Virus record (IMG/VR): IMGVR_UViG_3300045988_021320
Length of the DNA: 25,643 nucleotides
From: a virus
Direction: 5' to 3' (one strand)
In this document: positions 1-25,643 of the stretch, one piece after another
Layout: each line of letters starts with the position of its first letter
How positions within the stretch are numbered: the stretch's first letter is position 1
Made by a program: the position numbers and the translations under genes
The notes under the pieces: generated by a model
The model's input: the letters and a program-made list of their open reading frames with translations, nothing else
Database searches by the model: none
Told to the model about the DNA's origin: nothing

Positions 1-55
1 ACCGATGAGTTTTCTAGAGATAAATAATGCGTGACACAGTTTATTTTACACTACC
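1..55. repeat. Left inverted terminal repeat (55 bp)
   Basis: Bases 1-55 equal the reverse complement of 25589-25643 at every position (checked base by base). Identity stops at position 56 vs 25588. Confidence 0.95.
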
Positions 56-73
56 ATTCTTACTAAGGAATTT

Positions 74-742
74 GTGAATAAACAAATTACAATGTTGTCT
101 ACAATTTCAATAGATACTTTCAATGCTAATCCTATTCTTTGCGCTGCTCTTAATCTTAAAACTCCTGAAGAGTTTGTACGCTATAATGCCTATCAAGCTA
201 TTGGTAGAAGTATAGTTACTTCTATGGGTTTTTTAGTGCAGAATCTTCTTCTTTATTCTAATGAATATATCTTTGATGGTAAGACTTATGAAGAAGGTGA
301 TAAGACTAAGTTTGATTTAGTTATAGACCGATTAGGGGAGGTTAAATCATTCTTAGAAATTAAGAGTGGATTTAATGATATGGATGCAGGGCAAGTTAAA
401 CACTATGCCGATGAAATAAAGTTAGTAGAAGAAGCTGGAAATAAAGGATACATAGGTATCACCTATGGAAAGAAGGATGATAATACTGTAACTGCTGGCT
501 TACTTAAAACTTACGTTCCTAATTGGGAAGATAAGACTTTAGTAGGTAAAGAGCTTTGGGATTTTATCTCTGAGAATGAGAACTACCATACCATTCTGAT
601 AGAAAGTATAGATAGTGTAGCTAACACTACTCTTCAGAATGTTAGTATAGTGCAAAAGATTGAGGATAAAATAGCAGAGCTAATAGAGGTATTTCATACT
701 AACTATAATAGTCTTAGTGAGTATTATGAATCACTTTGGTAA
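74..742 (+). CDS. PD-(D/E)XK nuclease, type II restriction-endonuclease-like (possibly TdeIII/Eco47II-like); no adjacent methyltransferase
   Basis: 222 aa ORF with D81-x13-E95-I-K97 (KFDLVID...FLEIKSGFN). The upstream GRSIVTSMG segment resembles the S-x2-T-x2-G element I recall from TdeIII-type REases (from memory, not searched). Start is uncertain: GTG at 74 or ATG at 92. Confidence 0.55.
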   Translation: MNKQITMLSTISIDTFNANPILCAALNLKTPEEFVRYNAYQAIGRSIVTSMGFLVQNLLLYSNEYIFDGKTYEEGDKTKFDLVIDRLGEVKSFLEIKSGFNDMDAGQVKHYADEIKLVEEAGNKGYIGITYGKKDDNTVTAGLLKTYVPNWEDKTLVGKELWDFISENENYHTILIESIDSVANTTLQNVSIVQKIEDKIAELIEVFHTNYNSLSEYYESLW

Positions 743-782
743 AACATAATACAGTCTATATTAAGAGGAAATAGACAACAAA

Positions 783-812
783 CCCCAGCCTACCGATTAA
801 AGTAAGCTGGGG
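783..812 (-). terminator. Hairpin between convergent genes; likely terminator of the leftward operon, possibly bidirectional
   Basis: ccccagcCtac / gtaAgctgggg forms an 11 bp stem with one mismatch and an 8 nt loop. On the minus strand it is followed by tttgttgtc. It lies between the stops at 742 (+) and 830 (-). Confidence 0.6.
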
Positions 813-829
813 ATATAAAAGAATGTAAT

Positions 830-1216
830 CTAAACCGTATCAGGTCTTATTATTTGTTTATCAAGAATAGCTTGGAACACCTCTATTCTAGCTTGTTCAT
901 TAGTGTTAGATAGACCACCAATAGAATTTAACGTAGGTATATATAAATCCTCGTGATAGTACAGCCATTTGGGGTTATTCCCTTGATTGGGAGAGCCTAA
1001 CTCATTATCTGTACCATAATTATAGTTCCACCTAACCCCTAATACATTTCTATCTTCATTTACCAAATACAAATAAGCTATAGAGAAATCATCATTATTA
1101 AATAGAACTTTAACAACTTTACAATTTTTAGTATTAGCATCTTCTGGTTTCATATTATTACATTTTAAATTTACGGTATAAAGATAATAATTCCATTTTA
1201 ATTCTTGCTTATCCAC
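830..1216 (-). CDS. Hypothetical protein, translationally coupled to the upstream nuclease-like gene
   Basis: 128 aa ORF overlapping the preceding gene by 19 nt. Contains GVRWNYNYG...GSPNQGNNPKW. No family recognised. Confidence 0.6.
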   Translation of the reverse strand: MDKQELKWNYYLYTVNLKCNNMKPEDANTKNCKVVKVLFNNDDFSIAYLYLVNEDRNVLGVRWNYNYGTDNELGSPNQGNNPKWLYYHEDLYIPTLNSIGGLSNTNEQARIEVFQAILDKQIIRPDTV

Positions 1217-1671
1217 CTACCATTTACTAAGGTAAATCTTTGAGCCTTATAAGAAGGAATCATAATAACCTTCTTATAGTAGTTACCGTTATCGGCTGCT
1301 GTAGTAGTCGGACAGTATTTATAATCTATAGTACCAAAGTTCCTAACAGTATTAGTACTATACCAATAGGCATTAACTTTAGTTCCATCTGTAAAGAAGT
1401 TAATGTAGTATGCTATATCTGACTGGCTATCTTTCTTATCCTTCACTAAGGACTTATATTTAGATACTTCCATTAAGTGAGTATCATAGCCTTCATACTT
1501 AATCTTTCTTACCTTTATTTCGGCTACTACCTTCTTATCCTTATAAGTAAAATAGTAGTCCACTGGTGCATATTTATCTTCTGTAGGATGCAGATTAGTA
1601 GCACCCACTTGTATTAAAAATGATTCTAGTAGTTTCCTTCCATTTAGTTCTAATTCATCAAATTTATCCAT
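1198..1671 (-). CDS. PD-(D/E)XK nuclease-like protein
   Basis: 157 aa ORF with the motif APVD38-x12-E51-I-K53 (PVDYYFTYKDKKVVAEIKVRK), preceded by an acidic helix (ELELNGRKLLESF). Confidence 0.55.
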   Translation of the reverse strand: MDKFDELELNGRKLLESFLIQVGATNLHPTEDKYAPVDYYFTYKDKKVVAEIKVRKIKYEGYDTHLMEVSKYKSLVKDKKDSQSDIAYYINFFTDGTKVNAYWYSTNTVRNFGTIDYKYCPTTTAADNGNYYKKVIMIPSYKAQRFTLVNGRWISKN

Positions 1672-1760
1672 TTAAGCTAGTAGTTTGTACTAGCCTGTAT
1701 TCCATTATCATAAGTCATAAATCATTCACATTAACCATATACCATTTACAGGCTAATGGG

Positions 1761-1889
1761 TTATTCTTCCTTAGCAGGTTCTTCTTTAGTTTGTAAATCC
1801 TGCTGTACCATCTGTAATAGTCCAGCTACATCTTTATAAGGCTGCTGGACTAAGTAGTTGATAATTGCGTTAATAGTTTGTTCTGACAT
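1761..1889 (-). CDS. Small hypothetical ORF (42 aa, MSEQTINAIINYLVQQPYKDVAGLLQMVQQDLQTKEEPAKEE)
   Basis: Hand-translated ATG..TAA ORF on the minus strand in a region with no track ORF. Same orientation as its neighbours. Confidence 0.35.
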   Translation of the reverse strand: MSEQTINAIINYLVQQPYKDVAGLLQMVQQDLQTKEEPAKEE

Positions 1890-1952
1890 ACGTTTCATTC
1901 ACTTAGTATATTTAATGCTTCATCTGATTCTGATATAACTGCATTTCCTTCT

Positions 1953-2102
1953 TCATCTACCCACATAGTTCTTATCTTTAATAGCCTTAATAACCCTATC
2001 TGTTTCTTCTGTGATATGTTGTTTAATCTCATTTACTACAGTCCTAATAAGGAAATACATTAGAACTGCTAAGAATGTTAGTAATACATAGGTTGTAAAC
2101 AT
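1953..2102 (-). CDS. Small membrane protein (49 aa)
   Basis: Hand-translated: MFTTYVLLTFLAVLMYFLIRTVVNEIKQHITEETDRVIKAIKDKNYVGR. It has an N-terminal hydrophobic helix followed by a charged tail. Confidence 0.4.
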   Translation of the reverse strand: MFTTYVLLTFLAVLMYFLIRTVVNEIKQHITEETDRVIKAIKDKNYVGR

Positions 2103-2333
2103 AGTATATATAGTTTAAGTAGTTAATAATCAAAGTAAAGTAAGGTTATCTTCACAGACTACCTTACTGAATGAATAACGAAGTTAGTTATAAAATAAAT
2201 AATCTATGTGATAGGATAATCTTTGTAGTAGAAGTATCTGTAGTATTATTACTTTGATTAGTCGTAAAATAGAACTAAATTACTCACTAATCAGAATGAT
2301 AAAGTCATTCCTATTTAACTCTTTATCATATTG

Positions 2334-2341
2334 CAAATATA
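2334..2341 (-). promoter_or_regulatory. Candidate Bacteroidota-type -7 box (TATATTTG on the minus strand)
   Basis: Plus-strand caaatata is the reverse complement of TAnnTTTG. It lies in the 287 bp gap downstream of the helicase stop and upstream of the small ORFs. Confidence 0.35.
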
Positions 2342-2389
2342 GTAATAATATTTTACATATCAAAACTAAATTACAATAATTTTAATATT

Positions 2390-4204
2390 TCATTTAAACA
2401 CTATCTTAGGTCTGTAAACTATGAATCCTTTTGTTACTTTGCTATCAATTCTCTTAGTAGATGCTTCACAATCAAACCAATTAGTTAAGTCGGTAGCTTT
2501 GACTTTATCTATAATACCTACAGTATTATATGCTTCACTTATCCAGCCTTTAATATCAGCACTACTATAGAATCCTGTTTTAATTCTCTTACCTAGTATT
2601 TGTGCTGCTTTAGTATCTTTGTTCTTATCGGATTCCCAGTTAATTAAAGCTGCTTCTACTGCTGATTTTGAATATCTAAGGCTTCTAACTTTATCTACAC
2701 CTAATCTATGATAAGCATTAACTATTAAAGGCTGTATCTTAGCTAAAGTATTAGTTTCTGTAGCAATCACCATCTTACTAATAAGTTCTGCATATCTAAG
2801 GAAAGCATCTTTAAATGACATCTTCTTACCAGCCTTCTTCATTGAATCGGTAATCTTTTCTACAGTAATATCAGTAGTAAGCATATCATTCTTATTATAT
2901 GCACTTCTAAGTGCTATACCATCTTTATAAATAGACTGTTCTAATCTGAATGTAAATAGGTCTAGCTTCACTAACATATCATTTACAAAGTAATTACCTT
3001 CCTTATCCTGCATTACATACTGACTATTAAGCATCTTCTTAGCCATTTCTTTAGCTTTGTCGCTGCTTTTATTGATAGCACTAATAATTTCATTAGCACC
3101 TTCTATATTATCATTAGTACGCTTTACCATATCTTCATAAGTAATATCCAGTTCTATATTTCTGTTTCCTGTAGTATTAAAGATATGTACCAGTAAGTTT
3201 CTAAATGGGTTTGATTCAGTTCTAATTCTACCTGCTATCTGGTATATATCAGTAGAAATATCCAGCAGGGTATTAGTGTTAGTACTATTACTAACTACAA
3301 AGCATAAAGCCGAATCACTAAAGTAATCTGCACCTTCAAAGGATTTACTAGTAATGAAGGTAAACGGCTTATTCTCACTTCTGCTATTAGTAATGGTATA
3401 TCCTGCTAATTTGGCTCTATTACTTTCATTATCTGCACATACTATCTTTACTTCTTCATTACTAAGGTCACAGTATTGTAAGATGGATGCTATATCTGTA
3501 ACCGAATTTATAAAGAAGAAGGCTTCATAGCTTCTATTACCATTTATTTCTATAAACCCATCTTTCTTATAAGCATTGATATAGTTAGCAGCCTTAATAT
3601 ATGGCTTATTAGTTAAGTCCAGTTTAACTATCATTGTATCAGTTTCATCCCAAACAGCTTCTATTTCTTCTACATCTGCTAAACAGCTAGGTTTAAAATC
3701 AGCTTGAATAGGAGTAGCTGACATAAAGCAGAATGATTTGTAGCTTCTAAAGGTACTTAATACACCATCTATAGCCTTACTTCTGTAGCTATAAGCCTTT
3801 AGTAAGATGTGATATTCATCTACCAGTAACCTGTAATCAGTTGGTTCTAAGTATTCAGCTAATTTACCTATCTTATCATAAGTACACATAATTTTCTTAG
3901 TTCCTTTACCTTCTGCATATTTCTTTAATTCCTTCTTTACTGAATAAGAGAATACACCGAATAAGCCGAATACAGTTTGCTCTTTACCATCATAGTTAGT
4001 AATAGTGGCTACACCAGCTTCACTAAGACCAGTCTTATTAGTAATAAGTTCGGTAGTGGGTACTGCTATTACATAGTTTTCATTATTGAAAAGAACTATA
4101 GTAGTTCCACCACAACCAGTAACAACTTTATTAAAGATGCAGTTATAAGGTAAATCTGATAGGTTTAAATAGCCATTGCTTGAATTGATTAATAATGTTT
4201 TCAT
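2390..4204 (-). CDS. SF2 (DExH-type) helicase, probable replication helicase, with an unassigned ~270 aa C-terminal region
   Basis: Ordered helicase motifs: I-like VVTGCGGTT (aa 27-35), II VDEYH (128-132), III SAT (162-164), V TSKSFEGADY (285-294), VI QIAGRIR (322-328). Confidence 0.75.
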   Translation of the reverse strand: MKTLLINSSNGYLNLSDLPYNCIFNKVVTGCGGTTIVLFNNENYVIAVPTTELITNKTGLSEAGVATITNYDGKEQTVFGLFGVFSYSVKKELKKYAEGKGTKKIMCTYDKIGKLAEYLEPTDYRLLVDEYHILLKAYSYRSKAIDGVLSTFRSYKSFCFMSATPIQADFKPSCLADVEEIEAVWDETDTMIVKLDLTNKPYIKAANYINAYKKDGFIEINGNRSYEAFFFINSVTDIASILQYCDLSNEEVKIVCADNESNRAKLAGYTITNSRSENKPFTFITSKSFEGADYFSDSALCFVVSNSTNTNTLLDISTDIYQIAGRIRTESNPFRNLLVHIFNTTGNRNIELDITYEDMVKRTNDNIEGANEIISAINKSSDKAKEMAKKMLNSQYVMQDKEGNYFVNDMLVKLDLFTFRLEQSIYKDGIALRSAYNKNDMLTTDITVEKITDSMKKAGKKMSFKDAFLRYAELISKMVIATETNTLAKIQPLIVNAYHRLGVDKVRSLRYSKSAVEAALINWESDKNKDTKAAQILGKRIKTGFYSSADIKGWISEAYNTVGIIDKVKATDLTNWFDCEASTKRIDSKVTKGFIVYRPKIVFK

Positions 4205-4327
4205 AATAATTAGTTTAGATTAGTTTGTAAAGAATCTGTAGTTTAGTTCATATAATCTGTGATAAAAATGGTTACGCTATCTGGGTAAGTAGAAATCTGA
4301 ATAGATGTATATCTGTAGCAAATAATT

Positions 4328-4335
4328 TAAGTTTG
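4328..4335 (+). promoter_or_regulatory. Candidate -7 box TAAGTTTG, antisense to the leftward genes
   Basis: Exact TAnnTTTG match. Followed ~70 nt later by the hairpin aagcgta-tcac-tacgctt (4406-4423). Confidence 0.3.
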
Positions 4336-4515
4336 GGTATGTAACTTTTTTAGTAGTCTTAAAGGTATAATTTGCAAATTTTGGTTACACTTGAAATAAA
4401 ATAATAAGCGTATCACTACGCTTACTATTCTACGCTTAACTAACCCAAACTCAAAAATTATGATGAATGATTAACAATCAGTACCTAAAATATGCTCAAA
4501 AGGTACTTATGGTAA

Positions 4516-4523
4516 TAACTTTG
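4516..4523 (+). promoter_or_regulatory. Candidate -7 box TAACTTTG, antisense to the leftward genes
   Basis: Exact TAnnTTTG match. Followed ~20 nt later by a two-part 14 bp hairpin (4543-4580). Confidence 0.3.
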
Positions 4524-4638
4524 TGATTCTTAGAAGTGAATTAAGTGGAAGAACTGGCTAATCAGCTAGCCAGTCCACTTAGATAATCGAATTAAAATCT
4601 ATGTTTCAGTATGATAGTTTCCTTCATTTATTGTAATA

Positions 4639-4646
4639 CAAAGATA
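4639..4646 (-). promoter_or_regulatory. Candidate -7 box TATCTTTG on the minus strand, upstream of the helicase gene
   Basis: Plus-strand caaagata is the reverse complement of TAnnTTTG. It would give a ~430 nt structured leader before the helicase ATG at 4204. Confidence 0.3.
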
Positions 4647-4729
4647 GTGAAAGATTTTGACTTATGCAAATTAATTGTAACAAATTTTAAAATTTATATT
4701 GAGGATGTTATAACAGCTATATTCTTGTA

Positions 4730-5221
4730 TTACAGTATGCAAAGTGATGGATGAATGAACTTAAAGTAAAGTCTCTTGTCACTTCTTTCCACTAGACCAG
4801 CTTCTAAAGCTGAATATACTGTATTATGTTGTACCCCTATTTCGTGAACTATTCTATTCAGAGATAGGTCTACAATATTGGATGCTATTCTAGACCAGCA
4901 TTTGAATCGGATTAAGAAGCCGATTACTAATCTATCTACATCTGTATCTAACAGGCTGCTATCTATGGTTACAAAGAACTTGGTAGGTTCTGTATAGCTA
5001 TACTTATTACTGCATCCAGTTCTATCTATTGTTAGGTTGGCTACTTCTTCAAACTTCTTTAGATGGTTAAAGATGGTAGTTTCACTAACACCTGTTATTC
5101 TTACTATATCTTTAATAGTACTATCTGGATTCTTACTAATGGCTACTAATGTGCAGAAGTAAGTAAATGCTTCATTATTGGTTAATGCTTGTAATACTGG
5201 TATGCTTAATTTAATGTTCAT
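4730..5221 (-). CDS. Winged-HTH DNA-binding protein (possible replication initiator or regulator)
   Basis: The track ORF runs to 5278, but that extension lies inside the HNH gene. The ATG at 5221 (MNIKLSIPVL...) is the likely start. HTH-like segments: IKDIVRITGVSETTIFNHLKKF and LNRIVHEIGVQHNTVYSALEAGLV. Confidence 0.5.
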   Translation of the reverse strand: MNIKLSIPVLQALTNNEAFTYFCTLVAISKNPDSTIKDIVRITGVSETTIFNHLKKFEEVANLTIDRTGCSNKYSYTEPTKFFVTIDSSLLDTDVDRLVIGFLIRFKCWSRIASNIVDLSLNRIVHEIGVQHNTVYSALEAGLVERSDKRLYFKFIHPSLCIL

Positions 5222-5507
5222 AGTGATGTTCTTTTGCGTGGCACTCTTTACAGATAGACATAAGGTTATTAAAGTCAAATGCTTTGGCTAGTCTTTTAGT
5301 GCCAGTATAATTCATAAAGGAATCTATATGGTGAATATCTTCTGCTGGCTTAATGATGCCTTTGGCTAAACAGAGTTCACATAATGGCTGCTGCATTAGC
5401 TTTGCCTGCCTTAATTCCTTCCATTTGGTAGATTGGTATATCTTCTGTCTTTCTTCCCTGTTAAATGTTCTGGAAGGCTGCTTATTCGGTTTCTTTAGGT
5501 ATGGCAT
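5211..5507 (-). CDS. HNH endonuclease (phage terminase-associated type)
   Basis: CELCLAKG...EDIHHI...NLMSICKECHAKEH is a classic Cys-box plus HNH arrangement. 98 aa. Confidence 0.85.
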   Translation of the reverse strand: MPYLKKPNKQPSRTFNREERQKIYQSTKWKELRQAKLMQQPLCELCLAKGIIKPAEDIHHIDSFMNYTGTKRLAKAFDFNNLMSICKECHAKEHHYEH

Positions 5508-5985
5508 ATAGTTCTGATGGTATTATGTATTCACCTTCTTCATTCTGTACTTCCAATGGTGCTAATTTACTATTCATTGTATAGCTGGACTTCTTAGCAT
5601 AGCATCTTATAGTATTGAATTGCACTCTTAGTAGTTCTAATACAGATTCTTCTGTTACATCTTCCAGCCCTACTTCCATACATCTTATTACTGCTTTCTG
5701 TAGGAAATCTTCTACAGTCTGGGATATATAGATAGTATCTTTATTGTATGTAGTGTATTGCTTTACTAATTCGGGATAATGCTTGGCTATTATATCAGCT
5801 ATCTTAGAAGCATTTCTATGAAGTGGCTTATCTATTACTGTATTGTAGCTGTACTGGTCATATTGTGGCTTCCAGTTAATTATCTTATCTGCTGTTTCTA
5901 TATCAATGTGAAATAATGCTGCTGCTTTGTCTAGTCCGTAATCATAAACATATTGTAGTAGGACTGATTTAGGTGGTCTTATCAT
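5482..5985 (-). CDS. Hypothetical protein
   Basis: 167 aa ORF in the operon, overlapping both neighbours. No motif recognised. Confidence 0.6.
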   Translation of the reverse strand: MIRPPKSVLLQYVYDYGLDKAAALFHIDIETADKIINWKPQYDQYSYNTVIDKPLHRNASKIADIIAKHYPELVKQYTTYNKDTIYISQTVEDFLQKAVIRCMEVGLEDVTEESVLELLRVQFNTIRCYAKKSSYTMNSKLAPLEVQNEEGEYIIPSELYAIPKETE

Positions 5986-6253
5986 TCTTGAATTTAATGT
6001 ACTGGTTAATGGTTTCCCTGTTATAATTGAAGAAGTCTTTTAGTATGGCTTCTATCAGTGGTGCTTTATCTGATTTGTGGTTAGTATGTTCATCTATAAT
6101 ATCAATATTTCTATTAAAGAAATCTGCTATTATCAATCTTAGTAGTTTAGACCTGTCTTTGCCTAGTAATTGCTGTAGTTCTGTTAGTAACAGGTCGGTA
6201 TTTAGGTCTATTTTAGCTTTAATTTCTATTGGGTAATTACTTCTTCTTTCCAT
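5969..6253 (-). CDS. Ribbon-helix-helix-like small regulator (first gene of the leftward operon)
   Basis: PIEIKAKIDL (strand), LLLTELQQLLG (helix) and DRSKLLRLIIADFF (helix) fit the RHH pattern. Positioned next to the divergent control region. Confidence 0.4.
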   Translation of the reverse strand: MERRSNYPIEIKAKIDLNTDLLLTELQQLLGKDRSKLLRLIIADFFNRNIDIIDEHTNHKSDKAPLIEAILKDFFNYNRETINQYIKFKNDKTT

Positions 6254-6275
6254 AGTTTAGCCTTTAATTGTATTA

Positions 6276-6283
6276 CAAATTTA
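6276..6283 (-). promoter_or_regulatory. Candidate -7 box TAAATTTG for the leftward early operon
   Basis: Plus-strand caaattta is the reverse complement of TAnnTTTG. It ends 23 nt upstream of the ATG at 6253. Confidence 0.45.
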
Positions 6284-6327
6284 CTAACATCTTAACAGAC
6301 TTCCAAAGAAGTAATTCACATTCTTTA

Positions 6328-6349
6328 ATAATCATATTATAGTGATTAT
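6328..6349. promoter_or_regulatory. Inverted repeat ataatca-N8-tgattat in the divergent control region (candidate operator)
   Basis: Perfect 7 bp arms at 6328-6334 and 6343-6349, between the leftward and rightward operons. Confidence 0.3.
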
Positions 6350-6407
6350 AAGTCAATTAGAGCCATTACATAGCTTTATAAATTATAAAAATTAAATAGA
6401 CTATAAT

Positions 6408-6785
6408 ATGATAAATTACACTATTCCAAAGGACATTGAAAAGGATGCTAAGGTATATATGCAGAATGTACTAGAACAGCTAGATAGTACTGGTATGTTA
6501 GAGAATGTGGATAGTGCAGCTTTAACGATGCTGGCTAGAAACTACAGTATGTTCATTAAGGCATCCAAACAGTTAGAAGATGAAGGTTTGACTGTTACCA
6601 GTGATAGGGGTAACATTGCACCGCACCCAGCTATTAAGATTGCTAAAGATGCTCAAACGCAAGCTATGAAAGTTATGCTGGAGTTCGGACTAACAGCTAA
6701 GGCTAGAACTAAATTGCCTAAAGTAGAACAGGACGGGTATAACCCATTTGAGCAGTTTATAAAGGAAGGAAAGGAAACTAGGTAA
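6408..6785 (+). CDS. terS: Terminase small subunit (P27-family-like)
   Basis: 125 aa ORF directly upstream of and overlapping terL. The C-terminal PHPAIKIAKDAQTQAMKVMLEFGLTAKARTKL matches the P27-type GLTP.sR.kL signature. Confidence 0.85.
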   Translation: MINYTIPKDIEKDAKVYMQNVLEQLDSTGMLENVDSAALTMLARNYSMFIKASKQLEDEGLTVTSDRGNIAPHPAIKIAKDAQTQAMKVMLEFGLTAKARTKLPKVEQDGYNPFEQFIKEGKETR

Positions 6786-8413: not shown

Positions 8414-9645
8414 TGGGAATTTTTACTAATTGGTTTAAAAAGAAAGAACCAGAACAGGAAACCAGAGGGTTATTCTGTGATTCCTTAATGTATAATATGA
8501 ATGGCGGTTATACCACTAATAAGGCTATGTTATTATCTACAGTCTACAGGTGTGTAGATGTTATTAGTGATGCAGTAGCACAGCTTCCATTAGAGCCATA
8601 TTATATTACTGATTCTGGTTATAAGGAGAAGTTTATTAAGCATCCTACCTACTACTTACTGAACAAAGAGCCGAACAATACGATGAGCAGGTTTACTTTC
8701 ATAAAGACTTTGATAGTAAGCACACTGCTTAAAGGCAATGGATATGCTTATATAGAAAGAGATGCTAAAGGAGATGCAGTAGCACTTCATTATTTACAGC
8801 CAGATTATGTTACTATTACTGAACAGAAGGACGGAATTAAATATAGTGTTGTAGGTATTAAAGGACTGGTAGAGCCTTGTAATATGATTCATATACTGAA
8901 CTTTAGTTATGATGGTATTACTGGAATCAGTACTTTACAACACGCCAGACAGACTTTGGGACTGGCTACAGATTCCGAATCACACGCGCAAGGATTCTTT
9001 AAAGGTGGTGCTAATCTGGCTGGTATTCTTAAAGTACAATCTACTTTAACTGGTAAGCAGAAGGCAGACTTAAAAACTAGCTGGCAGACTGCTTTTAGTC
9101 CTACTACTGGTACACCTAATGGAGTAGCTGTATTAGAAGGTAATATGGATTTCCAGCCTATTACAGTGAATCCTGCTGATGCACAACTATTAGAAACCAG
9201 ACAGTTTAATGTAATTGATATTTGTAGGTTCTTCGGGGTATCACCTGTAAAAGCATTTGACTTATCCAAGAGCAGTTATAGTACTGTTGAGGCTACCCAG
9301 CTGGCTTTTCTTACTGATACATTATCACCATTACTAGAGAAGATAGAATTAGAGTTTGAAAGGAAGCTGTACAAGCCTTCTGAAAGGAGTAGAATAGATG
9401 TAAGATTTGATACTTCTGTATTACTAAGAGCAGACAAACAATCTTTAGCAAACTACTACAATACACTGTTTAATATCGGTGTGGTTAGTGCCAATGAGAT
9501 TAGAAAGCAGTTGGATTTACCTGCTATAGATGGTGGGGATTCTCACTTTATACAGGTTAATCTAATGGAGATTAAAAATGCTGCTAATAACATTCCATCT
9601 AATAACAATATAATCAATGATACAGACAATTTACAAGGGAACTGA
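8413..9645 (+). CDS. Portal protein (HK97 family-like)
   Basis: 410 aa ORF immediately after terL (ATGA overlap). Typical portal-like sequence and length. Confidence 0.85.
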   Translation: MGIFTNWFKKKEPEQETRGLFCDSLMYNMNGGYTTNKAMLLSTVYRCVDVISDAVAQLPLEPYYITDSGYKEKFIKHPTYYLLNKEPNNTMSRFTFIKTLIVSTLLKGNGYAYIERDAKGDAVALHYLQPDYVTITEQKDGIKYSVVGIKGLVEPCNMIHILNFSYDGITGISTLQHARQTLGLATDSESHAQGFFKGGANLAGILKVQSTLTGKQKADLKTSWQTAFSPTTGTPNGVAVLEGNMDFQPITVNPADAQLLETRQFNVIDICRFFGVSPVKAFDLSKSSYSTVEATQLAFLTDTLSPLLEKIELEFERKLYKPSERSRIDVRFDTSVLLRADKQSLANYYNTLFNIGVVSANEIRKQLDLPAIDGGDSHFIQVNLMEIKNAANNIPSNNNIINDTDNLQGN

Positions 9646-10458: not shown

Positions 10459-10468
10459 TGACAATACT

Positions 10469-14215: not shown

Positions 14216-14229
14216 TAATACTTATTGAT

Positions 14230-14831: not shown

Positions 14832-14833
14832 AT

Positions 14834-18681: not shown

Positions 18682-18682
18682 T

Positions 18683-21310
18683 ATGCAATTTACAAGAACA
18701 AACATAAATAAGACATTTCGTAACGGTGTAGTTAATGCCAGTAATGTAGCTGTTACTAATGTTGGTGGGGGAAGTTCTTCTTTAAGTGGGAACTTTCTAC
18801 CTGCTGTTAATAATGGTGATGGTTCATATACGGTGGATTTGTCTAAAGTATTATTTACTGGCAGCGTTATTAGTGAGGGTGAGGTTACAGCTTATGGTTC
18901 GTCTGATGGCAGTGGCAGTACTACAACAGGTGGGGTGACTATTATTGATGGTCTGGATTCAGTGGCTACAGATTGTGCCTTGTCTGCCAACCAAGGTAGG
19001 ATATTAAAGGAACTGATAGATAATACAGCTGGTGGTGTTACTGCACTGGCTAAACTGACAGACGTATCATTATCCAGTTTGACTAATGGACAGATACTAA
19101 AGTATGATGCAGTCTTAAAGAAATGGGTGAATGATACTCTAGATAATACCAAGGTTACTTGGACTAATATAGAAGGTAAACCAGCAGACCTTACAGATAC
19201 CAATATAGCCAAATGGAATGAACTGGCTAAGAATAATCACATACATACTAATAAGTCCGCATTGGATAAGATAACAGAAGCTAATATAACCAACTGGAAT
19301 GATGCTAATAATAAGAAGCATACACATTCTAATAAGTCTGTATTGGATGGAATAACATCTGCTAAGGTTACTAATTGGGATGGTGTAGCAACTAACTGGA
19401 ATAAGGCTTTTTACTTTGATTCCAATGGAGATTTGAAGGTTAAAGTAAATGTTATCGGTGAGAAGGAAGTTTCAGCCTATGGTGCAGGTGCTTCTGGTGG
19501 AAGTGGTAGTATTACTATAGTAGATGCTTTAACCAGTACGGCTACAGATGCAGCACTTTCAGCCAATCAAGGTAGGATTCTAAGGGAATTGATTGATAAT
19601 GTTGGCGGTGGTGTAAGTAGCTGGAATGATTTAACAGATAAGCCAAACTGGATAACTGATACTAAACCTTCTTATAGCTGGTCTGAAATTGGTGGTAAAC
19701 CTTCAACATTTACACCCAGTACGCATACACATAATTATGCTAGTACTGTTAAGGTTGGTTCAACAAATTATAATGTTAGTGGAAATACTATCAGCTTACC
19801 AGCATATCCTACAGTACCTTCTGCTTTAAAAAATCCTAATGCACTTACTATTAGCTTGAATGGTACTTCACAGGGTGCTTATGATGGTAGTGCTGCAAAG
19901 AGTTTCAATATAACAGCAGCTAGTGTAGGTGCAGCAGCCAGTTCGCATAGTCATTCAATTAGTAATGTTAGTGGTTTACAAGATGCCTTAAATGGTAAAG
20001 CAGCTAGTAGCCATAATCATAATAGTAGTTATGTATCTGCATTAGGAACTAATGGCAATTACCTTACTTGGACTAAAAACGGTACTACTAATAATATTAC
20101 TGTTCCTTATGCCTCAAATGCCGATACAGTGGATGGCTACCACCAAGCAGCATTCAGTATGGGCTGGACTACTTCAACTAAATACAGGGTTGACAGATGG
20201 GGAGGTAGTACAGACAAGAACTGGAAGAAGATAGTAACCTATGTTAATACAGGTGGAGGGCAATATCAAAGCTGTAAAGTCAAAGGTACAATCTACTATA
20301 TAACAGGTAATCACAATCAAGGGCACGTAATAGATATACCATTTGAAGCGATAATGTATGCTTATGGTGGTACTGCAAACTCAATGTTAAATCAAAGTAC
20401 TTTATATCTTCCCCCTTATTGTACTTGGGATATGATTAGGATAGTACGATATAATAACAACAGTTGGGAGGTACAAGTAAGGCAACCTAGCGATTGGACT
20501 AATATAAGTCTTGAATATACAGTAACTAATAGTGGTGGTAGTGTATCGGCAGGTCAGTTTACTAATACTTCTTATTCAAGCACTGTGGCTAATAATTATA
20601 ATACTAATGTTAGTAGACCTACTTCAAGTCGTGTCAGTAGTGCTGATAAAGTTAATAGTACATTGTCATTTTCAGCAGGTGGCTTTAGTACAAAGTCATT
20701 TAACGGCAGTTCCAATCAAACGGTTAATATTCCAACACATACCAGCCATTTGACTAATAATAGTGGGTTCATTACTAGTAGTGCTAGTATCAGTGGTAAC
20801 GCTGGTAGTGCTACAAAGCTACAAACAGCCAGAACTATTAATGGTACTTCATTTAATGGTACTGCTAACATTACTACGGCAAATTGGGGTACTACTAGAA
20901 GTATTTATATCCAAGATGCTACAGCTACTAATACCAGTTCGGCGGTTAGTGTAAACGGTGGTGGTAATGCTTATTTGAAATTACCAACTAACATTAAAGT
21001 CGGTACACTTACAGCTACAGGTGAAGTGACTGCTTATTCTGATATTAGGCTTAAAACAGACATTCAGCCATTAGAGAATAGGGGTTACATTAAACCTGTT
21101 ACATATAAGAAGGATGGTAAGGATAGTATAGGATTCATAGCACAAGAAGTAAGAGAATTATATCCAGAACTAGTTATAGAAGATAATACAGAAGATAAAT
21201 ATCTATCTGTCAATTATGCACAGTATGTAGCAGTATTACAAGCACAGATAATAGAATTGAATAACAGAGTTAAACAGTTGGAGAAATGGCATTATCAAGT
21301 ACAGGAATAA
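18683..21310 (+). CDS. Tail fibre with C-terminal intramolecular chaperone (peptidase S74-type) domain
   Basis: The C-terminus, GEVTAYSDIRLKTDIQPL...GFIAQEVRELYPELV...LSVNYAQYVAVLQAQIIELNNRVKQLE, is the S74 signature (from ~21037). Also has internal duplicated modules and Ser/Thr/Gly-rich stretches. Confidence 0.85.
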   Translation: MQFTRTNINKTFRNGVVNASNVAVTNVGGGSSSLSGNFLPAVNNGDGSYTVDLSKVLFTGSVISEGEVTAYGSSDGSGSTTTGGVTIIDGLDSVATDCALSANQGRILKELIDNTAGGVTALAKLTDVSLSSLTNGQILKYDAVLKKWVNDTLDNTKVTWTNIEGKPADLTDTNIAKWNELAKNNHIHTNKSALDKITEANITNWNDANNKKHTHSNKSVLDGITSAKVTNWDGVATNWNKAFYFDSNGDLKVKVNVIGEKEVSAYGAGASGGSGSITIVDALTSTATDAALSANQGRILRELIDNVGGGVSSWNDLTDKPNWITDTKPSYSWSEIGGKPSTFTPSTHTHNYASTVKVGSTNYNVSGNTISLPAYPTVPSALKNPNALTISLNGTSQGAYDGSAAKSFNITAASVGAAASSHSHSISNVSGLQDALNGKAASSHNHNSSYVSALGTNGNYLTWTKNGTTNNITVPYASNADTVDGYHQAAFSMGWTTSTKYRVDRWGGSTDKNWKKIVTYVNTGGGQYQSCKVKGTIYYITGNHNQGHVIDIPFEAIMYAYGGTANSMLNQSTLYLPPYCTWDMIRIVRYNNNSWEVQVRQPSDWTNISLEYTVTNSGGSVSAGQFTNTSYSSTVANNYNTNVSRPTSSRVSSADKVNSTLSFSAGGFSTKSFNGSSNQTVNIPTHTSHLTNNSGFITSSASISGNAGSATKLQTARTINGTSFNGTANITTANWGTTRSIYIQDATATNTSSAVSVNGGGNAYLKLPTNIKVGTLTATGEVTAYSDIRLKTDIQPLENRGYIKPVTYKKDGKDSIGFIAQEVRELYPELVIEDNTEDKYLSVNYAQYVAVLQAQIIELNNRVKQLEKWHYQVQE

Positions 21311-22377
21311 CAACAAGTCTGGTAGGAAATGCAATAGGGAGCAGCAGCAGGAATGTTGGTGCTCTATGCAGTTCCTCACTTATAAATGAGTGGTCTAAAT
21401 GGAAACCTATATCAAGTAATGTAGGTACAATGACACTAGCGGAATTGAAGAACAGGAATTATGGTATAAGCATACTGTCAGCCAATACACCAGATTCATT
21501 GGTGACACAGATAAAGAATAATAGTAATCTGGGATATAAGTATAATAAACCTATAGGCGGTGCTAACAGTCCTTATAGGTTGGGAGATTTTAGAAACTAT
21601 GACCATTCGGCAGCGATGCCTGTTGGAGCAAGCTATAAAAATGGCGACAGTGTTAATGTTGGTGGTGTTACTTCATCCAATCACGCAAGCTATGAGAAAG
21701 TATTGATGGGTATTGAAAATATGGATGGTGGGGATTCTGCAACTTATCTCAGTAAAGATAATCTGTATACAGTTTATGATAATAGTGGGAATAAGATAGG
21801 CTTAAAAAGAGGTGCATTAGTGACAGATGGTACAAATACAGTATGGTATAGTGATAAGCTGTACTGGTGGACTACACAGATGCAGAAGTTTAAAGGTAAA
21901 ACAGTGACAGTATATGAGTTTTATACCAATGCAACCAATACGCCTACTAATGCTTATGTAGCTAATGCCAATGACAGGTTTTTAGCACTGCCAGAACCAG
22001 TATATACTATACAGGTTAAGAATGATGTACCAGCAGGAAGCAAGATTGTTAATACTATATGTACTGCCAAATTTACTAACAGTACTAACCAGTATGTAAG
22101 TTATGAAATTAAATTTAGTGCAGTTGGCGCGACTTATAGAGGTGGCACGATTACAAATGTTAGAGCAGTATTAAGTAAGGATAGAAATGGGGTTAATGTT
22201 ATTGCAAGTACATTATTAAGTAATTCTCTCTATATTGCAGATGAAACAACTTCTCAAACATTCACAGGACAATTATATAATAGAGGTGGTTCAATGATGG
22301 CGTATTTGTTGATTTATTATAATAATTCAATTCAATACACAACTGGTATATTAGCCGAGATGCCAGATATACAGTAA
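21286..22377 (+). CDS. Hypothetical tail-associated protein (possible receptor-binding or accessory fibre protein)
   Basis: 363 aa ORF overlapping the fibre stop by 25 nt. No motif recognised. Confidence 0.4.
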   Translation: MALSSTGITTSLVGNAIGSSSRNVGALCSSSLINEWSKWKPISSNVGTMTLAELKNRNYGISILSANTPDSLVTQIKNNSNLGYKYNKPIGGANSPYRLGDFRNYDHSAAMPVGASYKNGDSVNVGGVTSSNHASYEKVLMGIENMDGGDSATYLSKDNLYTVYDNSGNKIGLKRGALVTDGTNTVWYSDKLYWWTTQMQKFKGKTVTVYEFYTNATNTPTNAYVANANDRFLALPEPVYTIQVKNDVPAGSKIVNTICTAKFTNSTNQYVSYEIKFSAVGATYRGGTITNVRAVLSKDRNGVNVIASTLLSNSLYIADETTSQTFTGQLYNRGGSMMAYLLIYYNNSIQYTTGILAEMPDIQ

Positions 22378-22399
22378 GCACTTTAAATTTATTAAGACT

Positions 22400-22600
22400 A
22401 TGACAAAGAAGATGAAATTAAATGTACAGTTGGTGGTAGCAGCCTTATTGATATTGGTGGGCTGTGGGCTACTGATTGCAGGATTTACAGTAGCACCATT
22501 AGGAATTATCCATAGTAGTGTACTGGTAGCTTTTGGTGAAACTTGTACCTTTGCTGGTGCTCTATTCGGAGTAGATTATCATTATAGGGTAAGACAATAA
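22400..22600 (+). CDS. Holin-like small membrane protein
   Basis: 66 aa with two hydrophobic segments (LVVAALLILVGCGLLIAGF and VLVAFGETCTFAGALFGV) and a charged C-terminus. Sits at the end of the late operon. Confidence 0.5.
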   Translation: MTKKMKLNVQLVVAALLILVGCGLLIAGFTVAPLGIIHSSVLVAFGETCTFAGALFGVDYHYRVRQ

Positions 22601-22607
22601 ATAAATT

Positions 22608-22645
22608 TAGCCTGTAGTCCTTTATTGGATTGCAGGCTATTTTAT
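22608..22645 (+). terminator. Rho-independent-type terminator after the late operon
   Basis: tagcctgta (22608-22616) pairs with tgcaggcta (22631-22639) in a 9 bp stem including one G-U pair, followed by ttttatt. Confidence 0.65.
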
Positions 22646-22653
22646 TAGCTTTG
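22646..22653 (+). promoter_or_regulatory. Candidate -7 box TAGCTTTG, only 4 nt before the ATG at 22658 (leaderless transcript likely)
   Basis: Exact TAnnTTTG match immediately after the terminator. Confidence 0.4.
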
Positions 22654-22657
22654 CAGT

Positions 22658-23440
22658 ATGGAATATATAGATTACTATTATAAGGAAATTCAGTATTATG
22701 CTATAGTTGAAGGTGACAGATGTTATTCTGTGAAGCCAGATAAATTTGCTACTGTTTGGTTGGCAGGAAACTATGTGCCTACAGTAGACTTTGATACCTT
22801 TAATGAGCAGATAGAATTTGATGGGAGCAAGGAAAAACTGTATATGTTATGCTGCTATATAATATATGTAATAGAACAGCATTACTTTGTAAAGCTAAGA
22901 CCTACATTAGAAGAATTAAATGCTGATAGTTTGGAAGGCATTACATTAAAATATAAAGACGGTTCATCCTTCACATTAAACAGCAGTAGTATTATTAAGG
23001 ATGTTACTAATGCTATTGGTGCTAGCAAGAATGGGGAATATAAGGTAGATAGTATATGTAAGTTACCAGAAGTAGCTAATAACACCTACATACAAAGTAT
23101 GTTCGCTGTAGAACTGGCTAACTTCCTGCATTACTACTTTCCAGTAAAGAGGAAGAAGGATAGTCTAGTTAGCACAAATGAACAGGATATGATTCTAAAG
23201 ATTCTGCATCTATTTAAATTAACACCTTATTTAGTTAAACGAAGTCGATTTAGACAGTTATTAATGCTGGCTGATAAATTCAAGGAGAATCTAAGCTGGA
23301 TAAACTTGCAAGGTCAGTTATTACCTGTAACCTTTATAAAATGGAAGCAGTGGAATACTAATAACTGGCTAGAAGTAGAATATGAAATGCTAAAAGAAGG
23401 AGAAACTGTTAGCTTTCCACTTTTAGAAAGTAACAATTAA
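22658..23440 (+). CDS. Hypothetical protein (stand-alone, moron-like unit)
   Basis: 260 aa ORF bracketed by its own terminator/promoter upstream and another promoter downstream. No motif recognised. Confidence 0.6.
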   Translation: MEYIDYYYKEIQYYAIVEGDRCYSVKPDKFATVWLAGNYVPTVDFDTFNEQIEFDGSKEKLYMLCCYIIYVIEQHYFVKLRPTLEELNADSLEGITLKYKDGSSFTLNSSSIIKDVTNAIGASKNGEYKVDSICKLPEVANNTYIQSMFAVELANFLHYYFPVKRKKDSLVSTNEQDMILKILHLFKLTPYLVKRSRFRQLLMLADKFKENLSWINLQGQLLPVTFIKWKQWNTNNWLEVEYEMLKEGETVSFPLLESNN

Positions 23441-23467
23441 TTCTGTGGTAGTCTGTTTAATGAGCCA

Positions 23468-23499
23468 TAACTTTGCACCAGTAAAACAAATAACTGGTG
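23468..23499 (+). promoter_or_regulatory. Candidate -7 box TAACTTTG (23468-23475) abutting the inverted repeat caccagt-N10-actggtg (23476-23499)
   Basis: Exact TAnnTTTG match. A perfect 7 bp dyad starts at the next base, 35 nt before the ATG at 23534. Confidence 0.4.
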
Positions 23500-23533
23500 T
23501 GCCAGATACCTAAATAACTTCCGCAGGGCAGCG

Positions 23534-23785
23534 GTGATAACAATGATAAGAAAAGAAGAAGTAGCAAAGTATGGAACTTGGTTTGGTAAATCAACCCCAG
23601 ACCACATTATTAAAAGATGTGATGAACAGATAGCCAACTGTCAGAAATGGATTCTGAATCTAGAGCAGCTAAAGCAGGAACAACTAGTTAAGAAGGCAGA
23701 AGGTCATAAGGAAGAATTAAAAGCTATGTTGGCTGCAATGGGTGAAGAAGAAAGAAGTAATTTTATTAATGGTTTAAACAGATGA
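23534..23785 (+). CDS. Hypothetical coiled-coil protein
   Basis: 83 aa. First gene of a four-gene unit. Overlaps the next gene (ATGA). Confidence 0.55.
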   Translation: MITMIRKEEVAKYGTWFGKSTPDHIIKRCDEQIANCQKWILNLEQLKQEQLVKKAEGHKEELKAMLAAMGEEERSNFINGLNR

Positions 23786-24135
23786 GTATGGATACACAAA
23801 CAAAAGAATTAATCCAGCTTTGGAATTTACTGGAATTGGGGTTTGAATTAAACCTTAGATATGCTGATACAGGCATTATTAATGAAGGTGATGAAGATGT
23901 AGTTATTAATGTTACTGCAATAGCTGAAACTGCTGAACAGTGGAATGAACCTATAGAGCCTAAACAGGTATCTATGTTTGAAGCTGTTGGTCTAGTAGCT
24001 GTAGTCAGTTTGGTTAATGATTATATGGAAGAACCTGTTGCATACAAAAGAGGTTCTGTTAATTCATTAGTAAAGCTGATTGGAGATAAGCTATTACAGA
24101 CTTTTGAAGGGAAACAAGTTAAAATAGATTTTTAA
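23782..24135 (+). CDS. Small strongly acidic protein
   Basis: 117 aa. By my count about 20 Asp/Glu versus 9 Lys/Arg. Confidence 0.55.
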   Translation: MSMDTQTKELIQLWNLLELGFELNLRYADTGIINEGDEDVVINVTAIAETAEQWNEPIEPKQVSMFEAVGLVAVVSLVNDYMEEPVAYKRGSVNSLVKLIGDKLLQTFEGKQVKIDF

Positions 24136-24156
24136 ATCAATAGCCAGTTATCGGTA

Positions 24157-24843
24157 ATGGTAGCTGGCTTTAAATACTTATGGTGTATGATAGTAGATAG
24201 TATGACTTATGAAGAAATAATATCTGAGTTTAAGAAGGACTGGGAGAATTATTTTCCAAATGTTCTGCCTAGATTTATGAATGATAGCAAGTATCGGAGA
24301 TATATGCTTAAAGAAGCCAAGGATAATGTTCCTGTATTCTTTAAACCAATAGAACTAACTAGTAATAGAGGAAATAAATATATTTTACAGATAAACAGTA
24401 AAGGTAGGTCTGATTACAAAAGAGGTGGGCTAATGTTTTTATTGTTTATGTACTATCATAGACCAGAAGGTATATATGCAGTAATGAGATGTCCGCAATC
24501 TAGCTGGGATTTGAAGGAAGCATCTTATAATATCTATATTCCGCATCTGTTTGATAGGTACAGAGAACGAGAACTACAGGACATTCATAAACCAAAGATG
24601 CAGACTATTATAGAGTTCTTTAAGAATAACGGGGTAGGTAGATATATAGATGTGACTAATGATAAGTATGATGATAATATATTCTTCACTACTACTAATG
24701 GCGTATTACTAGGAGGTAAGTTAGATGATGGGAATACTTTATTAAGGACTTATATAACCTTTGATATGCTTAGAGGTGAGCAGATTGATGATAAGGAAAG
24801 ATTAATAGCTAGAGTAAAAGAGTATATAGAGAATGAACAGTAA
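24157..24843 (+). CDS. Hypothetical protein; C-terminal half vaguely resembles a DUF4258/RelE-like small nuclease fold
   Basis: 228 aa. The motif IPH130LFDR134YR136ER138 is followed by ...NIFFTTTNGVLLGG...NTLLRTYITF. Start is uncertain (24157, 24187 or 24202). Confidence 0.5.
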   Translation: MVAGFKYLWCMIVDSMTYEEIISEFKKDWENYFPNVLPRFMNDSKYRRYMLKEAKDNVPVFFKPIELTSNRGNKYILQINSKGRSDYKRGGLMFLLFMYYHRPEGIYAVMRCPQSSWDLKEASYNIYIPHLFDRYRERELQDIHKPKMQTIIEFFKNNGVGRYIDVTNDKYDDNIFFTTTNGVLLGGKLDDGNTLLRTYITFDMLRGEQIDDKERLIARVKEYIENEQ

Positions 24844-24865
24844 ACAACATTAAATACTAATAAGT

Positions 24866-25528
24866 ATGAGAATATTAGAAGGAAAAGAATTAGATGATGC
24901 TTTAAAGCAGATGCAAGAATGGGAAGCTAAGAAAGCTAAAGCTATTGAAGATGCTTTCCAAAGAGGGATAGCAACAGGTGAAGATATTACTACTTTATTA
25001 TGGACTTATACAGATAGTAATTTCAGATGGGAACTATTTGCAGACCTTGCTGAGAAGGGCAAACTATCTGATGAAGCCTTTAATAAAGGACTGGCTATAG
25101 CTTGGACTGAGGGCAGAGGTACAGGGGATTTTAGGGCTATACAATACTTTATGAGGTGTAAGAAGGAATTAGTGATGAATGAAGAAGAACTAGCCTATTA
25201 TAATAGTTTGCCCGATAAGGTTACTTTGTATAGAGGTTGCAGTATAGAAGAGTATGAAGATGAAGATAGCTGTTTCGGTATTTCTTGGACTACCAGTAGA
25301 GATGTAGCAGAGTTCTTTGCATTTAGAAATGAGCAGGAAGATACTGCTGTATATTCTATAGAGGTTGATAAGGAAGATATAAAGGCTGTATTCTTATCTA
25401 GGAATGAATTTGAAGCTATATGTTTTGGCGGTGATGAAGCCACTTTGGTTACAGATGAACCAACAGAACTATATACTAATTATATGGAACGAAAGAAGCA
25501 GGAACTAGATGAATTTATGAATAAGTAA
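24866..25528 (+). CDS. Candidate ADP-ribosyltransferase (R-S-E class) with a helical N-terminal domain
   Basis: VTLYR123G, then CFGIS140WTTS144RDVAEFFAF, then SRNE181FE183AICFG. The order, local context and STS-to-ExE spacing fit the Y-R-G / G-x-S-T-S...A..F / E-x-E-hydrophobic signature of C3, VIP2/iota and T4 Alt/Mod-type ARTs. Confidence 0.5.
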   Translation: MRILEGKELDDALKQMQEWEAKKAKAIEDAFQRGIATGEDITTLLWTYTDSNFRWELFADLAEKGKLSDEAFNKGLAIAWTEGRGTGDFRAIQYFMRCKKELVMNEEELAYYNSLPDKVTLYRGCSIEEYEDEDSCFGISWTTSRDVAEFFAFRNEQEDTAVYSIEVDKEDIKAVFLSRNEFEAICFGGDEATLVTDEPTELYTNYMERKKQELDEFMNK

Positions 25529-25588
25529 TGAATGAAGGGGAATGGGGTAATATTTTAAGCTGATAGTGCTTTAAACCCCAGCCTACCC

Positions 25589-25643
25589 GGTAGTGTAAAA
25601 TAAACTGTGTCACGCATTATTTATCTCTAGAAAACTCATCGGT
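25589..25643. repeat. Right inverted terminal repeat (55 bp)
   Basis: Reverse complement of 1-55, with 55/55 identity. Confidence 0.95.

Follow-up and report, generated by a model that had tools for sequence, protein, structure and literature searches.

The question raised by the IMG/VR virus record IMGVR_UViG_3300045988_021320 is why a DNA of 25,643 bp (the window, meaning the whole stretch analyzed; 34.8% guanine plus cytosine, GC) contains not a single copy of the palindromes GATC, CATG and GGCC. Judging from its sequence, the window comprises about 25.5 kb of a ~29.7-kb prophage, that of a temperate HK97-like siphovirus. We consider it likely that the lineage to which this prophage belongs has been under long, ongoing selection against sites that Type II restriction enzymes recognize; within this reading, restriction as the selective agent and the choice of enzymes responsible are the parts that we infer. 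The original prediction had already proposed restriction selection with compensation at the codon level, and to that extent it stands. Its scope of four words and its view of the window ends as inverted terminal repeats (ITRs) of a phage genome do not.

Exact counting over the whole window gave zero for GATC, CATG, GGCC and both GGACC and GGTCC, hence also for GGNCC, just as had been claimed, and the other 4-bp palindromes described as present were indeed found (AGCT 147, TGCA 102, GTAC 105, CTAG 85, ACGT 9, TCGA 8 and GCGC 5). A lone CCGG had been reported at 25587-25590, straddling a supposed ITR boundary. The count was right, and the junction proved to be one between phage DNA and an insertion sequence (IS), with CC contributed by the phage and GG by the IS end; the native prophage DNA (56..25588; GC 35%) is therefore without any CCGG.

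Markov and codon-shuffle comparisons, which the original prediction had put forward as a check, place the depletion beyond what composition and codon usage account for. A first-order Markov model expects 54 GATC, 83 CATG and 31 GGCC. When codons were permuted within each of the 34 genes in 1000 replicates, a synonymous shuffle that keeps the proteins and per-gene codon usage, the expectations were 38.6±4.8 for GATC, 27.4±4.3 for CATG, 15.2±3.4 for GGCC and 15.1±3.3 for CCGG, and 0 of the 1000 shuffles reached the observed values. The most conservative null, a maximal-order Markov model fitted per codon phase to the coding sequence, expects 51 CATG, 47 GATC, 20 GGCC and 16 CCGG; under it, these four are the only ones of the 256 tetramers with an observed/expected ratio (O/E) of 0, the next lowest standing at 0.4. 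Taken alone, GGWCC gives a weak signal against the synonymous shuffle, which expects 2.9 copies (p about 0.05). The avoidance of GGNCC is nonetheless real, because the shuffle cannot create Gly-Pro, which is always encoded by GGNCC, and Gly-Pro occurs 0 times against 12.2 expected.

The purged set is also larger than the four words first named, which were correct as far as they went; it takes in GGNNCC, CCNGG, at least eight hexamers and obligate dipeptides as well. Over the native 25.5 kb, with maximal-order Markov expectations, there is no GGNNCC (18 expected), GATATC (11), CTGCAG (11), GAATTC (8), CTTAAG (8), ATGCAT (9), CATATG (7), GGTACC (5) or GTTAAC (5.5), and AAGCTT (1 against 11), CAGCTG (2 against 11) and CCWGG (2 against 30) are nearly gone. 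Several non-palindromic, Type IIS-like words are low too, namely GAAGAC (0 of 11 expected), GTCTC (1 of 12) and CTGAAG (3 of 15). In a pooled test on ten diverged relatives (166 kb), an O/E below 0.3 was found for 3 of 16 palindromic tetramers versus 0 of 120 non-palindromic ones, and for 9 of 34 palindromic hexamers versus 2 of 1695 non-palindromic ones. CATG was the most strongly purged word of all, with 0 copies against 441 expected in these relatives. Such palindrome-specific depletion is the signature of orthodox Type II restriction.

A few further words are scarce. AATT is low, at 161 copies versus 243 under the synonymous shuffle (z = -8.4), and AAAA and TTTT reach about half of expectation in coding sequence; known restriction sites account for neither shortage. 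On the + strand, CTCC, CCTC, ACTC, CTCA, GCTC and CTCG lie 4- to 27-fold under the first-order expectation; CCTC/GAGG summed over both strands is not depleted. The shortage of CTC-containing tetramers is probably a coding-strand or codon effect, most genes being on the + strand.

The choice of codons bears out the compensation that had been noticed by eye. Asp preceding a codon that starts with C is written GAC in 19 of 19 cases, as compared with 401 GAT to 63 GAC elsewhere, and His preceding a codon that starts with G is CAC in 9 of 9, as compared with 62 CAT to 21 CAC elsewhere. Likewise, none of the 146 internal Met codons is preceded by a codon ending in C, and none of the 95 Ile codons that follow a G-ending codon is ATC.

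The footprint reaches the proteins themselves. Three dipeptides force a purged word whatever the codons: Gly-Pro (GGN-CCN, giving GGNCC), Pro-Gly (CCN-GGN, giving CCWGG or CCGG) and Trp-Pro (TGG-CCN, giving GGCC). Among the 7,996 residues encoded in the window, all three are missing, against expectations of 12.2, 12.2 and 2.3, respectively, and of all 400 dipeptides none is more depleted than Gly-Pro and Pro-Gly. The structural proteins of the ten relatives contain 3 Gly-Pro (43.9 expected), 1 Pro-Gly (43.9) and no Trp-Pro (5.7), with control dipeptides at O/E 0.67-1.46; the outgroup phage L014, which shows no site avoidance, has 3 Gly-Pro and 10 Pro-Gly, each against 6.0 expected. (L numbers refer to related loci and contigs.) Counting was done proteome-wide, the terminase large subunit (TerL) alone having too few sites to inform on the Gly-Pro/Pro-Gly purge. 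Pairs of Asp or His with residues whose codons start with C or G, respectively, are under-used as well: DQ (2 of 16.5 expected), DP (2 of 12), HG (0 of 5.7) and HD (0 of 5.6).

Comparison with related phages, another check proposed at the outset, showed the absence of CATG and GGCC to be kept in diverged relatives. Searches with TerL yielded 13 loci from species-representative genomes and 80 from IMG/VR, the named hosts including Bacteroides congonensis, B. neonati, Parabacteroides segnis, P. gordonii, Paludibacter, Sodaliphilus, Muribaculaceae and Bacteroidaceae metagenome-assembled genomes (MAGs). Down to 74% TerL identity, CATG and GGCC are absent from all relatives apart from exceptions that lie mostly where contigs enter host or foreign DNA, and from single CATG copies kept in L073 and L076. 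No relative has more than about one GGWCC or CCWGG, apart from L011 (15 CCWGG), and CCGG does not exceed 3 per ~15 kb except in L010 (12) and L015 (10, beside an insertion in its TerL). More distant phages (66% and 54% TerL identity) are not depleted. Other words vary by clade. GATC is absent from one group of the TerL tree, consisting of the window clade, the 85% clade and L016, and occurs at 1.3-3 per kb in the other clades; since it was lost in only one subclade, the GATC purge is nested within an older purge of CATG and GGCC. CCWGG, GGNNCC, TCGA and AGCT likewise differ among clades, a pattern of losses that looks like an arms race. Divergence between clades amounts to 40-52% at the third codon positions of TerL, and in the window alone 1166 sites are a single mutation short of CATG; zeros in every clade would therefore require continuing purifying selection and not shared ancestry. 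The idea that the GATC-bearing relatives protect themselves by means of their own Dam is unsupported, a D12 methyltransferase being present in 1 of 10 such loci. A gene with a putAbiC domain (abortive-infection-like) is common just upstream of terS in the GATC-containing L006-L012, L084, L091 and L093, and no counterpart of it was seen in the window.

The host DNA that flanks the prophages has a different character, with 42-52% GC, a CpG observed/expected ratio (o/e) of about 1, and CATG, GGCC and CCGG near their expected densities. In a Bacteroides uniformis flank (L002 1-7900; GC 47-50%), for example, 7.9 kb contain 33 CATG, 19 GGCC and 45 CCGG. In the B. uniformis-like flanks (L002 1-7900, L097 10781-20663 and L027 13000-21444), GATC is found 1-3 times against 30-38 expected; in other hosts of the same phage (L098 and L044), it is not scarce. 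All host flanks, those of L002, L097 and L027 among them, also have only 0-4 CTAG against ~30 expected, and the native prophage has 83 copies (O/E 0.58). The phage profile is thus not a copy of the host's, because the phage purges CATG, GGCC and CCGG, which the host keeps, and tolerates CTAG, which the host avoids.

Three unrelated phages of Bacteroides or Phocaeicola, B40-8, Hankyphage p00 and PV4-TP1, share part of the pattern. CTGCAG and ATGCAT are absent or nearly so from all three, and GATATC, GAATTC or CATATG is also absent in two of the three. B40-8 avoids GGCC too, as does the window family. Unlike that family, however, the three phages have near-expected GATC, CATG and CCGG and a CpG o/e of about 1, and strongly avoid CTAG. 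Hexamer avoidance shared across unrelated phages is convergent evidence for a common host-side pressure, and the tetramer and CpG purge is peculiar to the window lineage. Within the window prophage, CpG o/e is 0.26 (0.15, 0.21 and 0.39 by codon phase); in relatives it is mostly 0.2-0.55, with a maximum of 0.71 in L016. With trinucleotides taken into account, the shortage of CpG is not palindrome-specific, CCGG apart, and TpG and CpA are not in excess (odds 1.03).

In related contigs, the order is a 3' fragment of a host comM-like Mg-chelatase gene, a 628-residue large serine recombinase, a 401-residue C5 methyltransferase, a 320-residue endonuclease, the genes of the window, and then the other comM half, which in intact relatives starts ~120 bp past the window's last open reading frame (ORF). 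These intact relatives, with 99% identical TerL, have an integrase with Resolvase, Recombinase and Zn-ribbon domains, a split comM and a full virion module, as expected of temperate prophages; the integrase gene falls outside the window, beyond its left end. In one case the host is B. uniformis, as established by exact matches of the prophage-flanking proteins. The 90% TerL cluster is also present in Phocaeicola massiliensis and Parabacteroides distasonis. The deposited phage collection held no close relative of the window.

The repeats at the two window ends, which match perfectly over 55 bp, had been taken for the ITRs of a linear phage genome; both are instead ends of an IS256-family insertion sequence. 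Bases 1-55 (1..55, + strand), the terminal 55 bp of such an element, lie inside a restriction endonuclease gene and are identical to DNA just downstream of the IS256-family transposase gene of Phocaeicola phage PV4-TP1. The same end recurs inverted at 25589..25643 (- strand), ~60 bp past the last prophage gene, and similarity to the intact prophages L097 and L098 ends at 25588, immediately before it begins. The length of the repeat would fit a short-read assembler break, or k-mer overlap, at a repeated IS. A protein-primed linear genome was accordingly rejected in favor of a prophage integrated between comM halves, and profile scans found no protein-primed DNA polymerase among the window proteins. 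Two inverted IS256-family ends resemble a composite transposon. Such an arrangement is more simply explained by two secondary IS insertions plus an assembly break at the repeat; the serine integrase of intact relatives and their clean junctions with comM likewise mark the ISs as secondary insertions. IScream prophages (PMC12823448) are comparable in that phage DNA carries IS ends on both sides; those elements, however, are bound by IS30, occur in Clostridia and lack an integrase. The window does not belong with them, having IS256-family ends, one of them inside a cargo gene, and a lineage with a serine integrase.

The gene interrupted by the left IS encodes a Type II restriction endonuclease of the EcoO109I family (56..742, + strand; Pfam PF14511), of which the 3' two-thirds remain. 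The fragment scores 46-48 bits against RE_EcoO109I (PF14511; cut-off 22.5) and more weakly against RE_TdeIII, both of which, by family description, would be GGNCC-core enzymes. From base 56, it continues in frame from residue ~93 of the 320-residue protein P0002, with 99% identity; the IS has thus removed the first ~92 codons, and the ORF at 74-742 is a remnant. The methyltransferase (M) gene lies outside the window, an intact pair of M and restriction (R) genes being found in L003; one source labels the partner "modification methylase sinI", which together with the family name would suggest RGGNCCY or GGNCC as the target, and the methyltransferase of this cassette occurs in P. vulgatus, P. 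dorei and B. uniformis. A solitary phage restriction enzyme, to which the phage is immune by site loss, was dropped as an explanation, the gene being the IS-truncated R half of an M+R pair.

Among phages with 99% identical TerL, the slot between integrase and phage genes holds different Type II restriction-modification (R-M) systems. An EcoO109I-family R with a C5 M is found in L003 (4868-7036), in L028, as the window remnant, and in L002 with a deletion fusing M and R; an NgoBV-family R (E = 6e-91) with a C5 M is found in L031 (1936-3992) and, by homology, L063; and an AlwI-family R (E = 6e-53) accompanies a D12 N6-adenine M in L033 (1122-3720). As the M-R fusion of L002 and the IS-cut R of the window illustrate, cassettes are frequently inactivated. 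Other relatives carry RloB/AAA_21, RelA_SpoT or putAbiC genes. The cassettes have 32-36% GC and lack GATC, CATG, GGCC and CCGG. With specificities inferred from Pfam family names only, the typical targets of these cassettes number 0 in the window for GGNCC (12 expected), 0 for GGNNCC (18), 0 for GGATC and 1 for GAGTC (6.6).

Selection by restriction would operate as follows. Unmethylated phage DNA entering a new strain would be cut at every recognition site, and variants that had lost a site would escape cleavage. Synonymous codons would bring about the loss where they can, through GAC ahead of C, CAC ahead of G and the avoidance of C-ending codons ahead of Met; a site forced by a dipeptide, as by Gly-Pro, Pro-Gly and Trp-Pro, would require a change of the protein sequence itself. 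The selecting enzymes may be those circulating in Bacteroidales strains, including the R-M cassettes of sibling prophages, which would share hosts with the incoming phage and, in the EcoO109I-cassette prophages examined, the attachment site, integration into the comM of gut Bacteroidales presumably being catalyzed by the large serine recombinase. In keeping with such enzymes, a survey of Bacteroides fragilis-group isolates lists GATC, CTGCAG, GGCC, CCGG, GGNCC, CCNGG and CCWGG as methylated (PMC10333322), and avoidance is known to concern mainly orthodox Type II sites (PMC6286503).

Several observations weigh against this reading. In that same methylome survey, as far as its accessible part goes, no methylated motif of the CATG type was found (PMC10333322). 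No cognate restriction endonuclease has been shown in any host, and host genomes were not scanned for them. CTAG, a reported methylated motif, is tolerated even though the hosts and other Bacteroides phages avoid it. Nor does the GATC status of host and prophage always agree: in Parabacteroides gordonii, 3 kb of flank contain 0 GATC, and the density in the prophage is about 2.9 per kb. General CpG depletion, to 0.26 and in every codon phase, is not obviously explained by restriction-site loss. Finally, temperate phages rarely eliminate sites, the host methylating prophage DNA (PMC6286503); it is only in this respect that the purging of four sites at once deserves to be called unusual, as the original prediction had it, because avoidance of multiple sites is in itself classical. 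The restriction reading thus does not account for where the CATG pressure comes from, for the tolerance of CTAG or for the CpG depletion.

The pressure might also have come from within the phage lineage, through its interchangeable R-M cassettes, and not from chromosomal host systems, an explanation that we regard as possible, if rather doubtful. A chassis free of sites would escape restriction by sibling prophages already resident (superinfection exclusion) and could carry any such enzyme without cutting its own fast-replicating, under-methylated DNA. The three different cassettes in one slot of phages with near-identical TerL speak for this, together with the absence or near-absence of their typical targets from the window; moreover, the low GC of the cassettes and their freedom from the purged tetramers mark them as long-term residents of such DNA. 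However, the cassettes are not family-wide, whereas avoidance of CATG, GGCC, GGNCC and CCNGG is, so they cannot explain the family-wide purge. In addition, neither CATG nor CCGG nor any purged hexamer is among the predicted targets of the observed cassettes, the predictions themselves coming from family names, and the hexamer avoidance common to unrelated Bacteroides phages points to host-side pressure. Pressure from sibling phages, or self-inflicted by a cassette, is plausible for a subset of the purged words, and the cassettes demonstrate that enzymes of this kind are in circulation in precisely this niche. For CATG, whose family-wide absence has no documented cognate host system in the accessible part of the methylome literature, one may also imagine a phage-encoded site-specific nuclease that degrades host or competitor DNA and spares a phage lacking the site. 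An HNH endonuclease and a PD-(D/E)XK protein are indeed conserved in the family. Nonetheless, we judge this improbable. HK97-like phages keep a packaging-associated HNH protein beside the terminase genes, and the 98-residue HNH protein of the window (5211..5507, - strand) adjoins them in just this way. The small, family-wide PD-(D/E)XK protein (ORF1198; 1198..1671, - strand), with invariant D38 and E51-x-K53, yields a model with a predicted local distance difference test (pLDDT) score of 90, whose best fold matches in the PDB are archaeal Hjc and also RecU Holliday-junction resolvases. It is thus probably an Hjc/RecU-like resolvase, and its candidacy as a hidden restriction enzyme was rejected on the basis of this predicted fold. 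Profile scans of the window proteins found no restriction enzyme without a methyltransferase, and it would be unusual for a temperate phage to cut up the DNA of its host at about 4 sites per kb.

Two further explanations dispense with selection by a nuclease. Mutational decay would have sites methylated at C5 (GGCC, CCGG, GGNCC, CCWGG and CpG) disappear by deamination of 5-methylcytosine in the prophage; many of the purged words are classical targets of C5 methyltransferases, the phages carry such enzymes, and CpG is down to 0.26. We rejected this account, which appears highly improbable: adjacent host DNA, exposed to the same methylases, keeps its sites and a CpG o/e of about 1; the deamination products TpG and CpA are not in excess; and the purged set includes words with A/T-only cores or of N6-adenine type, such as GATC, CATG, GAATTC, GATATC, CTGCAG, CTTAAG and CATATG. 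Nor does a mutational bias give exact zeros or remove specific dipeptides. That the pattern is an artefact, whether of base composition, codon usage, assembly or library preparation, has next to no chance of being correct. An AT-rich, CpG-poor genome does lower the counts of GGCC, CCGG and GGWCC by itself, but 15-51 copies are still expected under nulls in which composition, codon usage and trinucleotides are controlled; dozens of assemblies made independently from isolates, MAGs and viromes show the same pattern; and sites reappear within the same contigs once host DNA starts. Shuffles, phase-specific Markov nulls and the host DNA of these contigs together refute it. Selection against Type II recognition sites is the reading that we retain.

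The remainder of the window is organized as befits a siphovirus. On the + strand lie genes for the terminase small subunit (6408-6785), TerL (6785-8413), the portal (8413-9645), the head protease (10469-11017) and the HK97-type major capsid protein (11018-12193). They are followed by a tail module (13710..22377, + strand) that comprises the major tail protein, distal tail protein, tape measure (14834-16612) and fibre (18683-21310); the last prophage gene is located at 24866..25528 on the same strand. In the left arm, a 604-residue protein without a family match (2390..4204, - strand) has a possible role in replication, to judge from sequence and position. The right arm (22400-25528) has six ORFs, a small membrane protein at 22400-22600 and five of 83-260 residues, among which there was no Pfam or NCBIfam match at the thresholds used and no recognizable endolysin, the PHROGs scan covering a minority of them. 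For most ORFs of the left and right arms, there were no PHROGs, NCBIfam or PADLOC matches, and PDB sequence searches with the R fragment and with ORF1198 returned none.

Avoidance of restriction sites (palindromes) in bacteriophage genomes was reportedly described by Sharp in 1986 and by Rocha in 2001. As in the phages analyzed more recently (Rusinov et al., 2018; PMC6286503), short Type II palindromes fall below the compositional expectation or are missing here, synonymous codons are used, and related phages differ in the sites affected; what sets the window lineage apart is its temperate lifestyle, the many fully purged words, their conservation across several host genera and the reach to the amino acid level. 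Searches of the literature on site avoidance in Bacteroides phages returned nothing, and no description of protein-level (dipeptide) avoidance was found in the searchable literature. Broad-host-range plasmids offer a parallel, since avoidance of R-M targets has been linked to the host range of a mobile element (Shaw et al., 2023; PMC10359461), and the 90% TerL cluster, the prophage and the cassette methyltransferase are together spread over several hosts as well; the present case is a phage and not a plasmid, and the parallel is a lead rather than a test. Closer in habitat, the survey of Tisza et al. describes "roving" methyltransferases and R-M systems borne by prophages, and the depletion from genomes of lineage-specific methylated motifs (Tisza et al., 2023; PMC10333322). 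Gut Bacteroidales prophages with mobile methyltransferase or R-M genes are common to both studies, the slot with three alternative Type II cassettes being the instance found here; that survey deals with host methylomes and the depletion of host-lineage motifs, whereas here it is the carrier phage that is nearly free of sites.

Site avoidance itself is textbook knowledge, and the window is an extreme, previously undescribed example of it; the protein-level footprint and the swappable R-M cargo are noteworthy and leave the category unchanged. A bolder and quite speculative view is that the lineage is a "restriction-blind chassis", stripped by selection of nearly all commonly targeted short palindromes even at the cost of Gly-Pro, Pro-Gly and Trp-Pro, which moves between genera and safely carries interchangeable restriction enzymes, and that its loss of CATG points to an uncharacterized CATG-directed defence or a phage-borne nuclease. 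If this were true, a defence of that kind would be widespread yet uncharacterized in gut Bacteroidales, or a CATG nuclease would travel with phages. What the lineage does show is how far the strategy can reach in a temperate phage, with more than a dozen words and the obligate dipeptides purged, and it links a site-free genome to the carriage of swappable R-M cassettes. The purged words may be read as a sequence-only record of the restriction specificities that have mattered in gut Bacteroidales, including that for CATG, which the methylome data in the accessible part of the survey leave unexplained. Their list would also serve as a rule in designing DNA that is to be introduced into diverse Bacteroides strains.

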